Both the position numbers and the translations under genes were made by a program. From Herbidospora yilanensis (lineage in GTDB: Bacteria > Actinomycetota > Actinomycetes > Streptosporangiales > Streptosporangiaceae), in contig NZ_BBXE01000013.1 of the NCBI RefSeq assembly GCF_001570565.1, positions 264,984-328,983 on the forward strand: a stretch of DNA of 64,000 bases, given 5' to 3'. Each line of letters starts with the position of its first letter. Positions within the stretch are counted from its first letter, which is position 1. Shown piece after piece: positions 25,298-34,216 of the stretch. Under the pieces are notes generated by a model, which saw only the letters and a list, made by a program, of their open reading frames with translations, made no database searches and was not told the origin of the DNA.

Positions 25298-26257
25298 TCA
25301 GCCTGCTCCGGACCTGACCCGGTCGAGCGCCTGTTCGGCCTCGGCGGCCAGGGTGGCGACGAGGTCCTCGGCCGAGGGGAGATCGCCGATGAGGTCGACG
25401 GCCTCCCCGGCCCAGACGGCGGGCGGGACGGCGCCGCTCGCCATGTCGTCCTTGGCGACCTGCCTGGTCTCCCCCGTGAGCTCGGCCTCTCTGCCGTGCC
25501 ATCGGTCGATGTACGGGTGGGCGAGACTCCGGCCGTCGTACTTCTCCGGCCAGTCGACGCCCTTGACGATGTCGAGCACGCTGCTGCGCTCGGTCTGCCC
25601 ACCCTGACTCTCGACGATGGCCGCGGTGATCGCGGGATCGACGATCGCCTCGGCGGTGGCCTGGAAGCGGGTGCCCAGCAGGGCCCCGGCCGCCCCGAGC
25701 ACCAGCGCGGCGGCCACCCCGCGCCCGTCGGCGATCCCCCCGGCCGCCAGCACCGGCGTATCGCCCGCCAGGTCGACGACGGTGGGCACGAACGGCAACG
25801 TCGAGCGGCCCCTCCGCGCGCCGTGGCCGCCGCTCTCGGTGCCCTGGACCACGATGACGTCGGCCCCGGCGTCCAAGGCCTGCTTCGCCTCGGTCAGGTC
25901 GGTGACCTGGATCATCAGCAGTGCCCCCGCCCGCCTGATCGGCTGCAGGAACGGGGTCGGGTCGCCGAACGACAACAGCACCGCCGCCGGGCCGAACTCC
26001 AGGGCGTATTCGACCCCGGCCACGTCGGCCGCCCAGCACACGAACCCGACGCCCCACGGTTCCCGGGTGCTGTGGGCGACGATCGGCAACTCCCGTTCGA
26101 GCCAGTCGCGGACCCCGAATCCGCCGCCCACGAACCCGAACCCGCCACCGCGCGACACGGCCGCCGCCAGCTCCCCACCGGCCGAGAAGGCCATGGGCGC
26201 GGACACGATCGGCTGCCGCACCCCGACCAACCTGGTGAAACTCGTCGTCAATGCCAT
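25298..26257 (-). CDS. Nitronate monooxygenase (NMO/2-nitropropane dioxygenase family, FMN TIM barrel)
   Basis: Internal start MALTTSFTRLVGVRQPIVSAPMAF.. in track ORF 25298..26464-. Motifs include VIVVQGTESGGHG and PVLAAGGIADGRGVAAALVLGAAGALLGTRF. It lies only 20 nt downstream of the giant ATPase gene on the same strand. Confidence 0.85.
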   Translation of the reverse strand: MALTTSFTRLVGVRQPIVSAPMAFSAGGELAAAVSRGGGFGFVGGGFGVRDWLERELPIVAHSTREPWGVGFVCWAADVAGVEYALEFGPAAVLLSFGDPTPFLQPIRRAGALLMIQVTDLTEAKQALDAGADVIVVQGTESGGHGARRGRSTLPFVPTVVDLAGDTPVLAAGGIADGRGVAAALVLGAAGALLGTRFQATAEAIVDPAITAAIVESQGGQTERSSVLDIVKGVDWPEKYDGRSLAHPYIDRWHGREAELTGETRQVAKDDMASGAVPPAVWAGEAVDLIGDLPSAEDLVATLAAEAEQALDRVRSGAG

Positions 26258-26277
26258 GTGATCATCATGACCCGGCG

Positions 26278-29200
26278 TCATTCGGGTACCGAGTAGCGCT
26301 CCTCGATCGGTTCTCCGCCGCGCCTTCCGTCGTTGAGGGAGGTGATCGCGCCGCTGAGGCGGTCGGCCAGGTGGGTGATGGCGGAGACGGTTCGGGTCGT
26401 CGGGTCGTCGTCGTCGCCGCCCATCGCCTTCGCCCGGCGGTAGGCCGCCTTCACCTCCTCCCACCGGACCTTCTGCTCGTCCGTCAGCACCCCCCGCAGT
26501 TCCGCCAGCTTGAGCAGGTTCGCCTCCGCGCCGGAGGTGAGGGTCTGCGCCTCACCCAGGTAGTGGTCGTCGATGACGCCCTCCAGCTCGGCGTCGGTCA
26601 GCACCGGCACCACCCGCTGGGCGAGCTTGTTCATGTTCCGGTACGACCCCTGCAGCAGGAACGGCGGCTCGGTCCGGCTGGCGTCGGATTGGGCGGCCGA
26701 GGCGATGTAGGCCCGGTTGTTGGCCAGCACCACCTCCTGCAGCCGCAACATCTTCCGCAACACGCTGAGGATCTGGTCGAGTTCGACCGTGCTGTAGGGA
26801 TGCGAGAGCTGGTCGGCGCTGCCCTCGCCGCGCGCCAGCCGCACCAGCTTCTCGACCTCCCCGTGGTCGGACACCGGAGCCAGCACCGAGTTCGCCGTCA
26901 GCGCGTTCTCGATGTAACTCAACGCGAAAAGGTCGTCCTTGCCGCTCAGCACCTCGCCCAGGTTCCACACGTCGGCGCGGTTGGCCAGCATGTCGGGCAC
27001 CCGGAACACCTGGCCCGACTCGGTGTACGGGTTGCCGGCCATGCAGACCGCGAAGCGTTTGCCCCGCAGGTCATACGTCCGGGCCGTGCCGTTCCACACG
27101 CCTTCCATCCGCCGCTGCGCGTCGCACAGGGAGATGAACTTCTGCAAGAGCTCAGGGGAGGTGTGCTGGATGTCGTCCAGGTAGAGGAGCACGTTGCTGC
27201 CCATCTCCAGGGCGAAGGAGATCTTCTCCACCTCCGACCGGGAGGTCGCGTCGGGGGCGTCGGCGGGGTCGACCGAGGTCACCTCGTGCCCGAGGGCGGG
27301 ACCGTTGACCTTGACGAAGACCAGGCCCAGGCGGCTGGCGACGTACTCCATCAGGGTCGTCTTGCCGTATCCGGGCGGGGAGATCAGCAGCAGCAGGCCC
27401 ATCCCGTGGTCGAGCTGCTTGGCCAGGTTGTCGCCGATCAGCGGCAGGTACACCTGGTCGATCAGGGCGTTCCGGACGAAGGAGTCCATGACCTTGGGGC
27501 GGTATTCGTCCAGGCGCAGGCGTTTCTTCTCGGCGGCGACCAGTTCGGCGCGGCGGCGCTGGTAGTCCCGGTACGCCGGGACCCGCTCCGCCCGGAAGAT
27601 CCTGGTCCGGGCGAGGAACTCGTCGAGCCGGATCTCCATCGACCGCCCCCGGATGCGGGGGTGCGCGCCGAGCAGCCCTTCGACGACGCCGTCCAGCGTG
27701 GCGGCCGACTCGTAGCGCGGCAGGTCGCACAGCAGGAGCGAGACGACTTCCGGCGAGACCTCACCCTTGCCGAAGGCGGCCAGCCAGGCCCGCGCGAGCT
27801 GGATGCGGGCGGGCAGGTCCAGTGTCGACAGTTCGGCGGTGAACGCGGCGAAACGTTCGGGTCCGAGGGCTTCGCGGAAGGCGTCGAGGAAGGACCGGGC
27901 CGCCGTGGAGGTGACGAATCCCGCTGGCGGGGAGGCGAGTTCCTCGATCAGGTAGTCGGCGGCGAGGGAGGCGGGTCCGTCGAGACAACCATGGGCCTCG
28001 ATCGCCGAAGCGAGCTCCTCGGCCAGCGTGTTCAGCGCCTCGGTGCCACCGCCGAACAGTTCCCTGGCCCGAGTGAGGGACTGGGCCCTGATCTCCCACG
28101 TCGCCGAGGGGTTGCCGTGCGCCCAGAAGAACTGCGCCGTCGCGCGTGCCGACGGCAGGTGGCGCAGCAGGCCGGCCGAGGCGTGCAGGCGGGTCACGAC
28201 GTCGAGGATGCGCACGGTGTCGTGGTCGTGCACGCCGCGCTCGTAGCCCTCGTCGTAGCGTGACTCCGCGGCCCGTCGCACGGCCTCCGCGGGATCCCCT
28301 TCGACGGGGAACAACGACGCCGCCAGATATTCGGCCCGGTAGACCTCCGTCGTCTCCGACACGAGCAGTTGGTCCCAGAAGTGCCGGGTGTCGTCGAAGC
28401 CGGTCACGGGGGCGCGGTAGTCGGTGCCGGTGACGGCGAACGACAACGATCCCTCGTGGGGCACCAGGGTCAGGTCGAGCGGCTGGGTGTTGACGGCGAA
28501 CCGGTGGCGGCCCAGTTTGACCGTGTCGCCGTCGAACAGGTCGGTGCGGTCCTTGAGGGCGCGGCCGGCCTCCTGGCGGGCGGCGCGCACCCGGCCGTCG
28601 AGTTCGTCGGCGCGGACCGGATCGCCGAGTTCCCGCAGGTCGGCCGCCACCGCGCGGAGCTTCGCCACCATCGGGTCGGCGGCGAAGTAGGCGTTGACCT
28701 CGTCCAGCGAGGCCAGCGTCGCGGAGCGGCGGCGCACCGTGCCGAGGATGCGGTCGGCCGACTCGGCGAGGCGGTCGGCCCGCCGCGCCCGGTCGTCGAG
28801 GAGGGTCTGCTTGCGGGCCGAGAAGGCCTCGTAGACCTCTTCGCGTTTGCGTTCGAGCTGTGCGAGGAAGTCGTCGAACTCGCCGAAGCGCGACTCCAGG
28901 CCTTCGATCTGGAGCAGCAGCCGGCCGAGGCGCTCGTCGCACTTCTCGGGGGTGTCGGCGCCGGTCAGCCCGGCCGTCACGGCCTGGCCGAGGAGGCCGA
29001 ACTCGGCGGCGAACTCGGCCCGGCCCTCGGCGTCGAGCAGTTCGCGCCGCCGCGCGTCGAGGGTGGCGCGCACGCGGTTGATCTCGGCGAGGACCGCGCC
29101 GACCTTCTCCAGGATGACGGTACGGGCGGTCGCCTCGACCTCCAGCGTGCCGACCACCTCGATCAGCGCCTCCAGCCCGTCGGACTGGGCGGCCAGCCGC

Positions 29201-30999
29201 TCCGACAGCGGCGCCGAGAGGGCCACGGTCGTGATCGCCTCGGCCTCCTCCGCGAGCGCGGAGACCGTGGCGTGGAAACCGGCGAACGCGTCGTCGCGTT
29301 GCAGGTCGGCGACCACCTGGGCGGCGGTCTCGGTCACCTGCCGCGCCACGGCCGAGGCGAGCGCGTCGAGGGCCGGGAGGTCGGCGTACCGGCGTTCGCG
29401 CAGTGTCACCAGGTGGCCCTGGGTCTGCCGCAGTTCGGCCAGCCGGGTGACGCCGGTCGAGCGGATCCCGGTGAAGCGGTCGCGGGCCTCGGCCACCGCC
29501 CGGGCGGCGTCCTCGGTCAGGCGCTGCACGTTCTCGAACTCGTCGAGCACCTGCTCCGCCGTCGCCCGCAGGGCCGCCAGCGGCTCGGCGAGGTCGTGTT
29601 CGCCGAGCCAGTGGTAGGCGTCGGAGATGCGGTCGCAGCCGGCGATCAGCGCCTCGAAGACGGCCTGCGCGGGCGCCATCTCGCCGACCATCCGGGCCAC
29701 CGACAGGCAGTCGGAGATGCCCCTGACCAGCTCCCCGTTGCCGATGCGCTCCAGCGGGCCGGTGCCGACCGGGGTGGCCGACTCGACCGCGAACGGGGTG
29801 TCCCACACCTGCATCGGGTGCACCCGCGACGGCTCGTCGGAGGTCCCCCGGAACACCACCAGCGTGCCGTCGTCGAACAACGAGTAGCCGTGACACGGCA
29901 GCGGGTTGGCGACCTCCTTGCGGATCACGTTGTACGGAAGCAGGAGGTATCGCCCCTCCTCCCGCGCGTGGAAGACGTAGAGCACGTCCTCCTCGCCCTG
30001 GATGGCCCGCTCGAACTCCAGCGCCGCCACGTCGGTCTCGAACGTCTTGGCCACGCCGGTCGTCAGGTAGTAGCCGCCGGGGAAGATGACCCCCTGGTCC
30101 TCGGGGAGCCGCCGGCAGGCCTGCCCGATCCCGTCGAGCCTGGTCACGCTCCTGGTACGGGTGTTGAAGACCAGGTAACGCCAGTCGGTCTCCTTGTAGG
30201 GCCGGATCTTGAGCAGGATCAGCGGCCCGACCCGCGCGTGGAACACGTCGGCGTCGGCGAGGCTCTGGAGCCGCTCGGTGACCGGTTCGGAGTAGACGCC
30301 CTCCCCCGACTCGGTGTTGTTCTCGACCTTGATGGTCAGGTCGCCGCCGACGGTCTCGACGAACAACTCGCCGCCGATGGAGATGTGCGGGTGCCGCCCG
30401 AGCACGTGGTCGTCGCGGGTGGTCTCGACCCACTCGAAGTCGTGGGAGGGCGGCAGGACGTGGTCGCGCTCGCCCCGCGAGTCGAGATAGGACAACGCGC
30501 CGTCGGCCGCCATCGTCCAGCGCAGCACCCGGACGTCCTGCGGCCCGGTCTGGAAGATCGCCAGGAGCTTGCCCTCGATCTTCCGCAGTTGCAGCAGCCG
30601 GGTGTCCTTGTAGTAGCGGTAGAGCTCGGCGAAGTCCTTCTCGAAGGCCGGGTCGCCGAGCACGCTCTCCGAGCCCGAGAAGGTGAAGGCGTCGCCGTCG
30701 CGGGAGAAGCGGTGGAAGGAGAAGACGTCGGAGACGCTGGTCCGCGGGCGCAGGCCGATGAACACGTTGTAGCCGAAGATCATGGTGTCGCCGGCGGAGA
30801 CCACGTCCCGGGGCACGCAGTTGTTCTCGGTGCGGATGCGCTCGGTTCCCACCAGCCGCATCTCCGAGCCGCCGAACACCGCGAGGCGCCGGGTGTTGAG
30901 CTCCCCGGCCCGGCCGGCCAGTTCCTTGGCCTGCTCGGCCAGCCGGGCGCGGAGGATCTCGTAGGTGCCGGCGTCGAGCCCGGTCATCCCCAGGGTCAC
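26278..30999 (-). CDS. Giant (1573 aa) flotillin-associated AAA+ ATPase of unknown function
   Basis: Track ORF whose GTG start overlaps the flotillin stop (GTGA). The N-terminal ~450 aa look beta-rich and the middle ~600 aa are long helical or coiled segments. The AAA module reads LLLISPPGYGKTTLMEYVASRLG (Walker A) ... NVLLYLDDIQH (Walker B) ... FAVCMAGNPY. Confidence 0.8.
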   Translation of the reverse strand: MTLGMTGLDAGTYEILRARLAEQAKELAGRAGELNTRRLAVFGGSEMRLVGTERIRTENNCVPRDVVSAGDTMIFGYNVFIGLRPRTSVSDVFSFHRFSRDGDAFTFSGSESVLGDPAFEKDFAELYRYYKDTRLLQLRKIEGKLLAIFQTGPQDVRVLRWTMAADGALSYLDSRGERDHVLPPSHDFEWVETTRDDHVLGRHPHISIGGELFVETVGGDLTIKVENNTESGEGVYSEPVTERLQSLADADVFHARVGPLILLKIRPYKETDWRYLVFNTRTRSVTRLDGIGQACRRLPEDQGVIFPGGYYLTTGVAKTFETDVAALEFERAIQGEEDVLYVFHAREEGRYLLLPYNVIRKEVANPLPCHGYSLFDDGTLVVFRGTSDEPSRVHPMQVWDTPFAVESATPVGTGPLERIGNGELVRGISDCLSVARMVGEMAPAQAVFEALIAGCDRISDAYHWLGEHDLAEPLAALRATAEQVLDEFENVQRLTEDAARAVAEARDRFTGIRSTGVTRLAELRQTQGHLVTLRERRYADLPALDALASAVARQVTETAAQVVADLQRDDAFAGFHATVSALAEEAEAITTVALSAPLSERLAAQSDGLEALIEVVGTLEVEATARTVILEKVGAVLAEINRVRATLDARRRELLDAEGRAEFAAEFGLLGQAVTAGLTGADTPEKCDERLGRLLLQIEGLESRFGEFDDFLAQLERKREEVYEAFSARKQTLLDDRARRADRLAESADRILGTVRRRSATLASLDEVNAYFAADPMVAKLRAVAADLRELGDPVRADELDGRVRAARQEAGRALKDRTDLFDGDTVKLGRHRFAVNTQPLDLTLVPHEGSLSFAVTGTDYRAPVTGFDDTRHFWDQLLVSETTEVYRAEYLAASLFPVEGDPAEAVRRAAESRYDEGYERGVHDHDTVRILDVVTRLHASAGLLRHLPSARATAQFFWAHGNPSATWEIRAQSLTRARELFGGGTEALNTLAEELASAIEAHGCLDGPASLAADYLIEELASPPAGFVTSTAARSFLDAFREALGPERFAAFTAELSTLDLPARIQLARAWLAAFGKGEVSPEVVSLLLCDLPRYESAATLDGVVEGLLGAHPRIRGRSMEIRLDEFLARTRIFRAERVPAYRDYQRRRAELVAAEKKRLRLDEYRPKVMDSFVRNALIDQVYLPLIGDNLAKQLDHGMGLLLLISPPGYGKTTLMEYVASRLGLVFVKVNGPALGHEVTSVDPADAPDATSRSEVEKISFALEMGSNVLLYLDDIQHTSPELLQKFISLCDAQRRMEGVWNGTARTYDLRGKRFAVCMAGNPYTESGQVFRVPDMLANRADVWNLGEVLSGKDDLFALSYIENALTANSVLAPVSDHGEVEKLVRLARGEGSADQLSHPYSTVELDQILSVLRKMLRLQEVVLANNRAYIASAAQSDASRTEPPFLLQGSYRNMNKLAQRVVPVLTDAELEGVIDDHYLGEAQTLTSGAEANLLKLAELRGVLTDEQKVRWEEVKAAYRRAKAMGGDDDDPTTRTVSAITHLADRLSGAITSLNDGRRGGEPIEERYSVPE

Positions 31000-33005
31000 T
31001 TCTCGACCGGGGTGATCGCCGGGCCGCCGCCGTTCTTCATGAGGGTGGCGAGGAACGCCGACACGGTCATGTCACGGACGGCGCCCGAGTCGACCCCGGA
31101 CACGATCTTGGCGAGGTCGGCGCTGAGACTGGCGTCGCCGTTCAGGTAGGGGTCGGCGAGGGTGCGGGCCACCTCGGAGTTGTCGACGAAGCCGTCGATG
31201 CTCTTGCCCATGGTCACCGCGCCGACGAGCTTGTCGAAGAAGACGCTGTCGCCGCCGACGATGTCGATGTTGGCCTTCGACAGACCGGCCGACAGGACCT
31301 CGGCCTGCGCCTCGGCGACCCTGCGGTGCACCTCGACCCCGGCCAGGCGGATCTCCTTCTCGGCCTCCAGCCGCAGGCGGTACTCCTCGTGGACGCGGCT
31401 CGCGTCGGACATCGCGGCCAGCGCGGCGGCCTTCTCGGTGAGACCCTCGGCCTCGGCCTTCAGCTTCTCGCCGACCATCATCGCGGCGGCCACGGCCTTG
31501 GCCTGCTCGCCGTCGGCCTCGGCCTTCAGCCGCTCGCGGGTGCCCTCGGCCGACGCCATGGCCTTCTCGCGTTCGACGATCGCCTCGGCCTTGCCGACCT
31601 TCTCGATCGCGGCGGCCGTGCGCTCCTTGACCTGCACCTCGGCCAGGCCCGTCGCGGCGGCCTCGGCCTGCACGCCCTCGGCGAGGCGGATCTTGGCGCG
31701 GGCGTCGAGCTCGGCGGCCTGCTGGCGCGACTCGGCCAGCACCAGCGCCTCACGCGCCCTGAACTTCGACGCGGCCTCGGCGGCCTCGGCGGCCTTGATG
31801 TCCTTGACCAGGTTCTCCTGCGCCTCGGCCTCGGCGGCGATGATGACCGACTGGCGGGTGCGCTCGGCCTCCTCGACGACGCGCAGGCGCTTGATCTGCT
31901 CCTCCTGCTCGGCCACCGTCTTCTCGACCGCGATGCGCTCGCGCATGACCTCGGCGATCGAGCGCTTCTCGACCTCCAGTTCCTTCTCCTTGGCGATGCG
32001 CGACAACTCGGTCTCCCGCTCCCGGGCGATGACCTCCAGCAGGCGGTCCTTCTCGATGCGCTCGCTCTCGATGGCGATCACGCGCTCGCGGTTCTTCTCG
32101 GCGACGGCGACCTCGCGGGCCTTGTTCTCGCTCTGGACGCCGATCTGCTCGTCGGTCTTGATCGCGGCGGCCTGGGCCTTGAGGCGCTCCTCGGCGCGGA
32201 CCCGGGAGATCTCCGCCTCCTCGCGGGCCCGCATGGTCTCGACCTCGCGCTTCTGCTTGATCTCGGCGTCGGCCTGGCGGCGCTCCAGTTCGAGGATGGC
32301 CTCCCGGGCGTCGACGTTCTGCCGGGTGATCTCCTTCTCCTCGTTGCGCTGGAACTCGTTGGTCCGCACGTGCTCGATCGCGGTCAGCTCGGTGATCTTC
32401 CGGATGCCCTGGGCGTCGAGGATGTTGGCCGGGTCGAGCTTGGACAGCGGCGTCTGCTCCAGGTAGTCGATGGCCGCGTCCTCCAGCGAGTAGCCGTTGA
32501 GGTCGGTGCCGATGACGCGGATGATCTGGTCGCGGAACTCGTCGCGCTGGGTGTAGAGGTCGACGAAGTCGAGTTGCTTGCCGACGGTCTTGAGCGCCTC
32601 GGAGAACTTGGCGTTGAACAGGGCCTGGAGGGTCGACTCGTCGCTGGCCCGGGCGGTGCCGATGGCCTGGGCGACCTTCACGACGTCCTCGGCGGTCTTG
32701 TTCACCCGCACGAAGAAGGTGATCTTGATGTCGGCGCGGATGTTGTCACGGCAGATCAGGCCCTCGTGGCCGGACCGCTCGATCTCGATGGTCTTCACCG
32801 AGATGTCCATGAACTCGGCCTTGTGCAGCACCGGTAAGACCACGGCGCCGGTGAAGGTGACGTCGACCCGGCGCACCTTCGACACGATCAGGGCCTTGCC
32901 CTGCTCGACCTTGCGGAACAACCGGCTGACCACGATCACCAGTGCGATGACGACGATCAGGACGACCGCGATGAGTATGCCGGCTCCCGCCGAGATGACG
33001 TCCAT
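30996..33005 (-). CDS. Flotillin-family SPFH/Band-7 protein (YqiK/FloT-like)
   Basis: An N-terminal TM (GILIAVVLIVVIALVIVV) precedes the SPFH domain (ALIVSKVRRVDVTFTGAVVLPVLHKAEFMDISVKTIEIER...). A ~300 aa Ala/Glu/Arg/Lys-rich coiled-coil flotillin region follows. Confidence 0.9.
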   Translation of the reverse strand: MDVISAGAGILIAVVLIVVIALVIVVSRLFRKVEQGKALIVSKVRRVDVTFTGAVVLPVLHKAEFMDISVKTIEIERSGHEGLICRDNIRADIKITFFVRVNKTAEDVVKVAQAIGTARASDESTLQALFNAKFSEALKTVGKQLDFVDLYTQRDEFRDQIIRVIGTDLNGYSLEDAAIDYLEQTPLSKLDPANILDAQGIRKITELTAIEHVRTNEFQRNEEKEITRQNVDAREAILELERRQADAEIKQKREVETMRAREEAEISRVRAEERLKAQAAAIKTDEQIGVQSENKAREVAVAEKNRERVIAIESERIEKDRLLEVIARERETELSRIAKEKELEVEKRSIAEVMRERIAVEKTVAEQEEQIKRLRVVEEAERTRQSVIIAAEAEAQENLVKDIKAAEAAEAASKFRAREALVLAESRQQAAELDARAKIRLAEGVQAEAAATGLAEVQVKERTAAAIEKVGKAEAIVEREKAMASAEGTRERLKAEADGEQAKAVAAAMMVGEKLKAEAEGLTEKAAALAAMSDASRVHEEYRLRLEAEKEIRLAGVEVHRRVAEAQAEVLSAGLSKANIDIVGGDSVFFDKLVGAVTMGKSIDGFVDNSEVARTLADPYLNGDASLSADLAKIVSGVDSGAVRDMTVSAFLATLMKNGGGPAITPVEK

Positions 33006-33007
33006 GA

Positions 33008-33517
33008 CTACAGGCCCCCTTCGTAAGGCATGACCCAGAAGAACTCGCCTTCCGCGTCATATTGGAAGATCAGCGCGGCCCCGCCCGCGCGGAAGACGTC
33101 GACGCCGGTCTGGCGCACCTGGATGACCGAGGTCGAGCCGTCGACGGCGCGGATCTCGGCCTGACCGAAGTCGGTGGAGACCGACTGGGTTCTGATGACG
33201 CAGATCTGCCCGACGAAGTCGTGCCGTGAGGGCACCTTCTCGGGCGCGGGCGTGAGGCGGCGTACCAGGAACGCGGCCCCGAGGCCCAGGACGAGCGCGG
33301 CGGCCAGGACCACCCAGCCGAGCGCCGGAAACAGCACGGATCCGGCCAGCGCGGCGAACCACCCCGTGGCCACGAACCCGGAGACCTCGGCCGCGGGCAG
33401 ACCGTCGAGGTCGACCACGCCGAAGGCCACGAGCAGCCAGAACCCGATGACGACGATCAGCGCGAAGCTGAACAGGACAGCCGGGAAGCCTAATGCGGCG
33501 TCCACGAAATCGCGCAA
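33008..33517 (-). CDS. NfeD/YqiJ-like membrane protein with a C-terminal OB-fold
   Basis: TTG start with AAAGGGGA upstream. It has 3-4 TM helices, then a soluble beta tail (GQICVIRTQSVSTDFGQAEIRAVDGSTSVIQVRQ...). Its stop lies 2 nt before the flotillin ATG. Confidence 0.75.
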   Translation of the reverse strand: MRDFVDAALGFPAVLFSFALIVVIGFWLLVAFGVVDLDGLPAAEVSGFVATGWFAALAGSVLFPALGWVVLAAALVLGLGAAFLVRRLTPAPEKVPSRHDFVGQICVIRTQSVSTDFGQAEIRAVDGSTSVIQVRQTGVDVFRAGGAALIFQYDAEGEFFWVMPYEGGL

Positions 33518-33601
33518 CTTCTATCCCCTTTACGGCATTTGCGCCGTCCCCTCTTGCAAACGTGGAATCTATCAGCGCGGTTCCGCAGGGAATAGGGTTA
33601 T

Positions 33602-34216
33602 TTATGCCGTACGCCCCCGCCGCGCGACGGCCCAAACCCCCAGCGCCGCCAGCGCGGCGATCTCCGTGAACACCAGCCCGCGCTCGACCGCCCCGAGCCC
33701 GACCGGCATGGCCCGCCACCAGGGGATCCCGTCGCGGGCGGCGGTGTAGCCGACCAGCACGATCCCGGCGATCCACCCGACGGCCCCGAACCCGAGCGCC
33801 GCCGCCACCTTCGCCATCGTGTCGCGCCACGGCCGGGCCAGCAGCAGCACGGCGACCGGCAGGCAGACGAAGGCCACCACGCTGCCGACGCGGTGCACCG
33901 AGCCGGAGAACGACGGCCCGACGGACCAGTCGTGCTTGGGGAAGGTCGCCACGACCAGCAGCCCGAGGCTCCACCCGGCCAGGGCGACCAGGCCCAGCGG
34001 CCGGGCCCGGCGCTGCGCGGCGAGGGTCGCCCCGATGCCGAGCGACCCCAGCGCGATCAGCGCCACCGAGACGCCGAACAACCAGGCGTGCTCGCCCAGT
34101 TGGTGTTCGCTGATCGTCCGGCGGGCCAGGTCGATGCCCGAGGAGAACTCCAGGGTCAGGATGGCGGCCGCGGCCACGGTGATGGCACCGAGACCGGCCT
34201 GGGCGGGAACGCGCAT
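33602..34216 (-). CDS. Polytopic membrane protein (DUF998-like)
   Basis: Internal start MRVPAQAGLGAITVAAAAIL in track ORF 33602..34363-, with six hydrophobic segments. The family call is from memory only. Confidence 0.55.
   Translation of the reverse strand: MRVPAQAGLGAITVAAAAILTLEFSSGIDLARRTISEHQLGEHAWLFGVSVALIALGSLGIGATLAAQRRARPLGLVALAGWSLGLLVVATFPKHDWSVGPSFSGSVHRVGSVVAFVCLPVAVLLLARPWRDTMAKVAAALGFGAVGWIAGIVLVGYTAARDGIPWWRAMPVGLGAVERGLVFTEIAALAALGVWAVARRGRTA

Follow-up and report, generated by a model that had tools for sequence, protein, structure and literature searches.

In E. coli (yqiJ-yqiK) and B. subtilis (yuaF-floT), the flotillin gene is paired with an NfeD-type gene, in the gene order found in the locus described here, and in E. 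coli no ATPase gene follows the pair. What flotillins do in bacteria is a matter of debate, and to our knowledge no ATP-dependent factor has been described that acts on them. Using comparative genomics, Ravi et al. 2024 (mSystems, PMC11237479) described operons encoding YqiJ/YuaF, band-7/flotillin and beta-propeller/coiled-coil/AAA+ proteins, with the neighbourhood of ANH61663.1 in Dokdonia donghaensis as an example, and proposed a membrane dynamics or chaperone-like role for them. The association of flotillin with the ATPase is thus published, a point missing from the initial annotation, and not new. That study reports no structure, AAA+ class, linkage statistics or experiment (PMC11237479). 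To its published paragraph, we add linkage statistics, the AAA+ class and a domain map with invariant motifs, as well as evidence against the name "DNA repair ATPase" and the removal of a nitronate monooxygenase (NMO) from the module.

The window, a stretch of 64,000 nucleotides from Herbidospora yilanensis, carries a minus-strand cluster at 25298-33517 that encodes, in this order, a YqiJ/NfeD-like protein, a flotillin, a giant ATPase and an NMO. All four ORFs were confirmed, at the coordinates given below for each. In order and domain architecture, the flotillin and the ATPase match those of the operon of Ravi et al., and the small protein that precedes them is probably its YqiJ-type member. 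The flotillin is recognised by its homology to YqiK, its adjacency to the ATPase gene in all loci where this could be examined, and a GTGA overlap with that gene; the ATPase combines an AAA+ module with an N-terminal beta-propeller and a coiled coil, as seen in AlphaFold2 models and fold matches. In a Niabella-like locus (L003), the full form described by these authors is found, with HTH, CesT/Tir, PspA, small TM proteins, flotillin and ATPase. Unlike it, the window lacks the CesT/Tir-PspA dyad and is an abbreviated form; also unlike the published operons, it carries the unrelated NMO gene, joined by a deletion.

The genes upstream of the operon in the window encode DUF998 and AhpC/TSA proteins, the DUF998 gene ending at 33602. 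Between this gene and the cluster lies a comparatively AT-rich intergenic leader (33518-33601, minus strand), with a Shine-Dalgarno-like AAGGGGA at its end, where we infer that the operon promoter would lie; a sigma-70 consensus scan gave no match and a terminator scan no terminator-like site above chance, neither of them informative. The NfeD-like gene starts at the TTG at 33517, just after the AAGGGGA. A gap of 2 nt separates its TAG stop from the flotillin ATG, which is preceded by GAAGGGGG, and the flotillin TGA then overlaps the GTG start of the giant ORF (GTGA). This last overlap, pointed out in the initial annotation, was read in identical form, and without an alternative ATG, in H. galbida and a Nonomuraea, making three genomes with the window. 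Short overlaps at this junction, GTGA or other, are possible in about 23 loci, and overlapping or near-abutting junctions recur in Streptosporangiales, Pseudonocardiales and Micromonosporales. In Streptomyces and other phyla, the junction measures 70-260 nt. At the level of the sequence, these junctions demonstrate translational coupling of the YqiJ-like, flotillin and ATPase genes in the lineage of the window. At the other end of the ATPase gene, its TGA overlaps the first ATG of the NMO frame (ATGA, at 26281); the spacing of 20 nt given initially for this junction fits the second in-frame ATG, at 26257.

The YqiJ/NfeD-like gene (33008-33517, minus strand) encodes a small membrane protein of 169 aa, with a TM segment at its N-terminus, additional hydrophobic stretches and a C-terminal domain rich in beta strands. 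Taken alone, it falls below every Pfam and NCBIfam threshold, has no PDB sequence match, and is not matched by the HMM of the NfeD OB-fold (PF01957). Its orthologs gave weak matches, 2 out of 16 to YqiJ_N and 1 out of 16 to NfeD (E 0.03). In 15 loci drawn from several phyla, it aligns with the small gene located 5′ of flotillin, and tblastn detected a YqiJ-like gene upstream of flotillin in 60 of 85 loci. Its position, its size and its arrangement of TM and beta segments agree with a YqiJ/YuaF-type multi-TM protein, with weak sequence similarity to E. coli YqiJ (hhalign probability 76%, E 2e-5). The flotillin gene (30996-33005, minus strand) encodes 669 aa, with an N-terminal membrane anchor, an SPFH domain, a Glu/Ala-rich coiled coil and a flotillin C-terminal region. 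It shows 100% identity to a protein of Herbidospora yilanensis whose relatives carry flotillin/YqiK names, and is about 115 aa longer than its E. coli counterpart. The Band_7 HMM (PF01145) does not match it even at E values up to 10, while 5 of 16 orthologs are matched (best E 1e-9). Taken alone, it reaches no Pfam or NCBIfam threshold and its PDB sequence search was empty. With a profile of 16 orthologs, too, the PDB yielded nothing useful. Direct comparison with E. coli yqiJK settled the identity of the flotillin and marked the smaller protein as probably YqiJ-like. As the flotillin is homologous to YqiK (BLASTP 1e-36, 27% identity over 468 aa; hhalign probability 99.9%), it belongs to the flotillin family in spite of the missing Band_7 match.

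Linkage of the ATPase to flotillin was assessed in a set of 80 genome loci, of which 76 included upstream DNA. In all 76, a flotillin gene lies directly upstream of the ATPase gene, on the same strand. The same was found in 8 out of 8 distant loci fetched separately (Vibrio, Niabella-like, three metagenomic, Alteromonadaceae, a PspA-linked locus and pQBR103). The extension of an SPFH-NfeD pair by a giant ATPase, proposed in the initial annotation, is supported as a conserved unit, ATPase homologs following flotillin directly in every examinable locus. Identities of the ATPases and of the flotillins to the window proteins are correlated (Pearson 0.91, n=80). Beyond flotillin and, usually, the YqiJ-like gene, the flanks of the loci contain no broadly conserved neighbour. 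In L003 and in a second locus (L089), a PspA gene immediately precedes the triad, and the triad of pQBR103 sits inside a PspA/polyamine gene cluster; with two PspA queries, none was detected within 10 kb in the 80 genome loci. A rhomboid gene is found near the triad in another locus (L005) and on pQBR103, and TelA is encoded nearby in Vibrio. The ATPase is present in 14 of 72,556 plasmids, mostly megaplasmids or chromids, and in none of 50,697 phage records. Its identity follows taxonomy between the levels of genus and order, an argument for mostly vertical inheritance, and the operon occupies the same chromosomal position in three Herbidospora species. These data show that the YqiJ-like, flotillin and ATPase genes are inherited and retained as one unit across phyla.

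The giant ATPase (26278-30999, minus strand, 1573 aa) belongs to the DUF3686 family. It has more than 6,600 homologs, and homologs bear the NCBI name "DNA repair ATPase", the generic name given in the initial annotation. The family is typified by proteins of ~1600-1900 aa with an N-terminal DUF3686 domain, a DUF7902 and one AAA domain, an architecture common to the window protein and its homologs. The match to PF12458 (DUF3686) reaches 679 bits for a cut-off of 25 over residues 26-463, and PF25472 (85 bits), AAA_5 and AAA are matched as well. Since no TM segment is found (maximum KD19 1.23), the protein is expected to be cytosolic. The beta-rich N-terminus, the helices and the single AAA module anticipated from the sequence are all seen in the AlphaFold2 models. 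In the N-terminal model (pLDDT 86.9), residues 48-400 are beta-rich and helices follow from 415 on; the DUF3686 domain (29611-30924, residues 26-463) consists of an N-terminal helix and a divergent beta-propeller. A helical-bundle rod comes next (28555-29610, residues ~464-815), which includes DUF7902 (570-653), then a conserved middle domain (27550-28554, residues ~816-1150) made of a small beta unit and a helical domain and marked by an invariant motif, G922-V-H924-D-x-D927. For the propeller and rods, all structural neighbours are generic. In the C-terminal model (pLDDT 88.2), a single AAA+ module spans residues ~1160-1420 (26740-27522). All these features are on the minus strand.

This module contains a Walker A, SPPGYGKT (residues 1207-1214, 27358-27381), a Walker B, LLYLDDIQH (residues 1271-1279, 27163-27189), a candidate sensor 1, N1323, and the invariant R1341. 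Both Walker motifs, noted at the outset, hardly vary in 41 diverse homologs that have 32-56% identity to the window ATPase, and N1323, R1341, R1442 and R1454 are likewise invariant or nearly so. The alignment demonstrates strong purifying selection on the nucleotide-binding motifs, and given their conservation the ATPase is probably an active enzyme. The initial assignment to a MoxR/dynein-like class agrees with the fold comparison, the nearest solved structures being the MoxR proteins CbbQ and NorQ, followed by midasin and dynein. A beta-hairpin is predicted between helix 3 and strand 4, ahead of the sensor-1 strand (strands 508-513 and 516-521 of the C-terminal model), and a loop only stands at the place of a MoxR helix-2 insert. 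The Walker B of MoxR proteins usually ends in Asp-Glu (hhhhDE). Here it reads LYLDD, with D1275 and D1276 invariant or nearly invariant and no Glu, so that catalytic details may differ from those of the MoxR family (CbbQ, NorQ, RavA). MoxR proteins are also normally partnered by a VWA protein; in the comparison of flanks across loci, no VWA gene was conserved beside the module.

The last gene of the cluster (25298-26281, minus strand) encodes an FMN-dependent nitronate monooxygenase / FabK-like oxidoreductase (PF03060, 1e-40). Of 85 homologous loci, 84 lack this gene, and in the remaining one, that of the sister species H. galbida, it lies 6 kb downstream of the ATPase gene and is coupled to a HAD/HerA-like gene instead. 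Synteny breaks at window position 26324-26326. The H. galbida ATPase ends in AITSLKDR and its HAD-like protein in EERYTAPE, whereas the window ATPase ends in EERYSVPE. The 3′ end of the window ATPase gene (26278-26325, minus strand) is thus chimeric, its last ~15 codons coming from the 3′ end of the HAD/HerA-like gene. Judging from the sequences compared, a recent, strain-specific deletion of ~6 kb fused the ATPase to the HAD/HerA-like tail, and it is because of this deletion that the NMO gene adjoins the ATPase gene in the strain of the window. The two are probably co-transcribed there. We conclude that the NMO is a passenger outside the conserved module, and its initial proposal as an extension of the operon falls.

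Our preferred reading, to which we give a probability of about 0.5, is that the window carries an abbreviated form of a widespread YqiJ/NfeD-like-flotillin-ATPase membrane module, in which the ATPase would, when the envelope is stressed, remodel flotillin assemblies or their clients. Helped by its YqiJ-like partner, the flotillin would build large oligomers at the cytoplasmic side of the membrane, as in solved SPFH complexes, and the ATPase, probably a ring oligomer as its MoxR relatives, would use its propeller and rod regions to dock on these oligomers. A direct interaction is favoured because the gene linkage is invariant. ATP hydrolysis could then assemble, open or disassemble the flotillin assemblies, or remodel client proteins within them, as part of an envelope-stress or membrane-maintenance response. 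Analogous machines would be FtsH inside the HflK/C cage, or Vps4 acting on ESCRT-III/PspA-type polymers, and PspA genes adjoin the module in some phyla. A stress setting is suggested by these PspA genes and by the rhomboid and TelA genes near some copies. The analogy is functional only, an AAA+ machine being paired with an SPFH cage or with a polymer that remodels membranes: the window ATPase lacks a protease domain, an MIT domain and a membrane anchor, belongs to an AAA+ clade other than that of FtsH and Vps4, and no homology is claimed. The mechanism is built on guilt by association and analogy. A literature search on the DUF3686/PF12458 ATPase, also in combination with flotillin or MoxR, found no study; a paper on M. 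chelonae deals with a MoxR unrelated to the DUF3686 ATPase, and with a flotillin. Against a role in flotillin remodelling, the ATPase is dispensable for basic flotillin function, as many flotillin operons lack it, including E. coli yqiJK. The generic neighbours of the propeller and rods, the Asp-Asp Walker B, the missing VWA gene and the failure to detect PspA in the 80 genome loci also weigh against the mechanism. Only tentatively would we go further and see in the ATPase the first dedicated energy-consuming partner of flotillin, a ring-shaped motor of the MoxR/dynein class whose propeller and talin-like rods would grip the cage, hydrolysis serving to open, disassemble or reposition it during membrane damage.

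In the manner of CbbQ, NorQ and RavA, whose targets are Rubisco, NO reductase and respiratory complexes, the ATPase could be a chaperone directed at a client, with flotillin as a docking platform, that matures another membrane complex, inserts cofactors into it or disassembles it. The proximity of the CbbQ and NorQ structures, a large propeller and rod suited to client binding, and the view that flotillins scaffold other complexes (PMC13086221) all speak for it. We nevertheless consider it rather unlikely, as no candidate client or VWA adaptor is conserved beside the module, whose invariant partners are limited to flotillin and, usually, the YqiJ-like protein. It overlaps with the remodelling of flotillin assemblies and differs from it in substrate only.

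Defence systems commonly include large multi-domain NTPases that carry sensor-like propellers, and a membrane scaffold joined to such an NTPase might sense phage infection and damage the membrane in an anti-phage or abortive-infection response. The few copies on megaplasmids, and weak matches to the IetA and mad8 models limited to the Walker A, could point that way. We hold this to be improbable, for none of the four proteins has a significant match in PADLOC-DB 2.0 (matches of P-loop length only, E 0.002-0.011), phage records are devoid of the ATPase and plasmids nearly so, inheritance is mostly vertical with a fixed position in Herbidospora, and the neighbours are housekeeping or stress genes rather than defence islands. 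Even less credit is due to a coiled-coil ATPase working on DNA, like SMC/Rad50 or RuvB. Apart from the Pfam and NCBI names, this idea draws on sub-threshold matches to the RuvB_N, RFC and SMC models and on the "DDIQ" of the Walker B, which may resemble that of DnaA. But the SMC match (E 0.0013, 16.6 bits for a cut-off of 567) is restricted to the helical rod, and the RuvB matches (~20 bits against 280) are confined to the P-loop region; neither HMMs nor predicted-fold comparison found a DNA-binding or nuclease domain, the AAA+ module is of the MoxR/dynein type and not an ABC-type head split by a coiled coil, and the conserved neighbours are membrane proteins only. Least credible of all is a four-gene operon in which the oxidoreductase would provide a flotillin-ATPase machine with a lipid or nitroalkane substrate, or take such a substrate away: the ATGA overlap and the lack of terminator-like sites above chance agree with it, but the NMO is missing from 84 of the 85 loci, is found elsewhere in H. 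galbida, and owes its position to a deletion scar. As a conserved member of the module, the NMO is refuted, which leaves a strain-specific effect of co-expression as the sole possibility.

With a giant conserved ATPase linked to flotillin in all examinable loci, the three-gene module offers a handle on flotillin assemblies under envelope stress. If the ATPase is indeed a motor acting on them, flotillin microdomains in hundreds of species would be actively remodelled, and not passive scaffolds.

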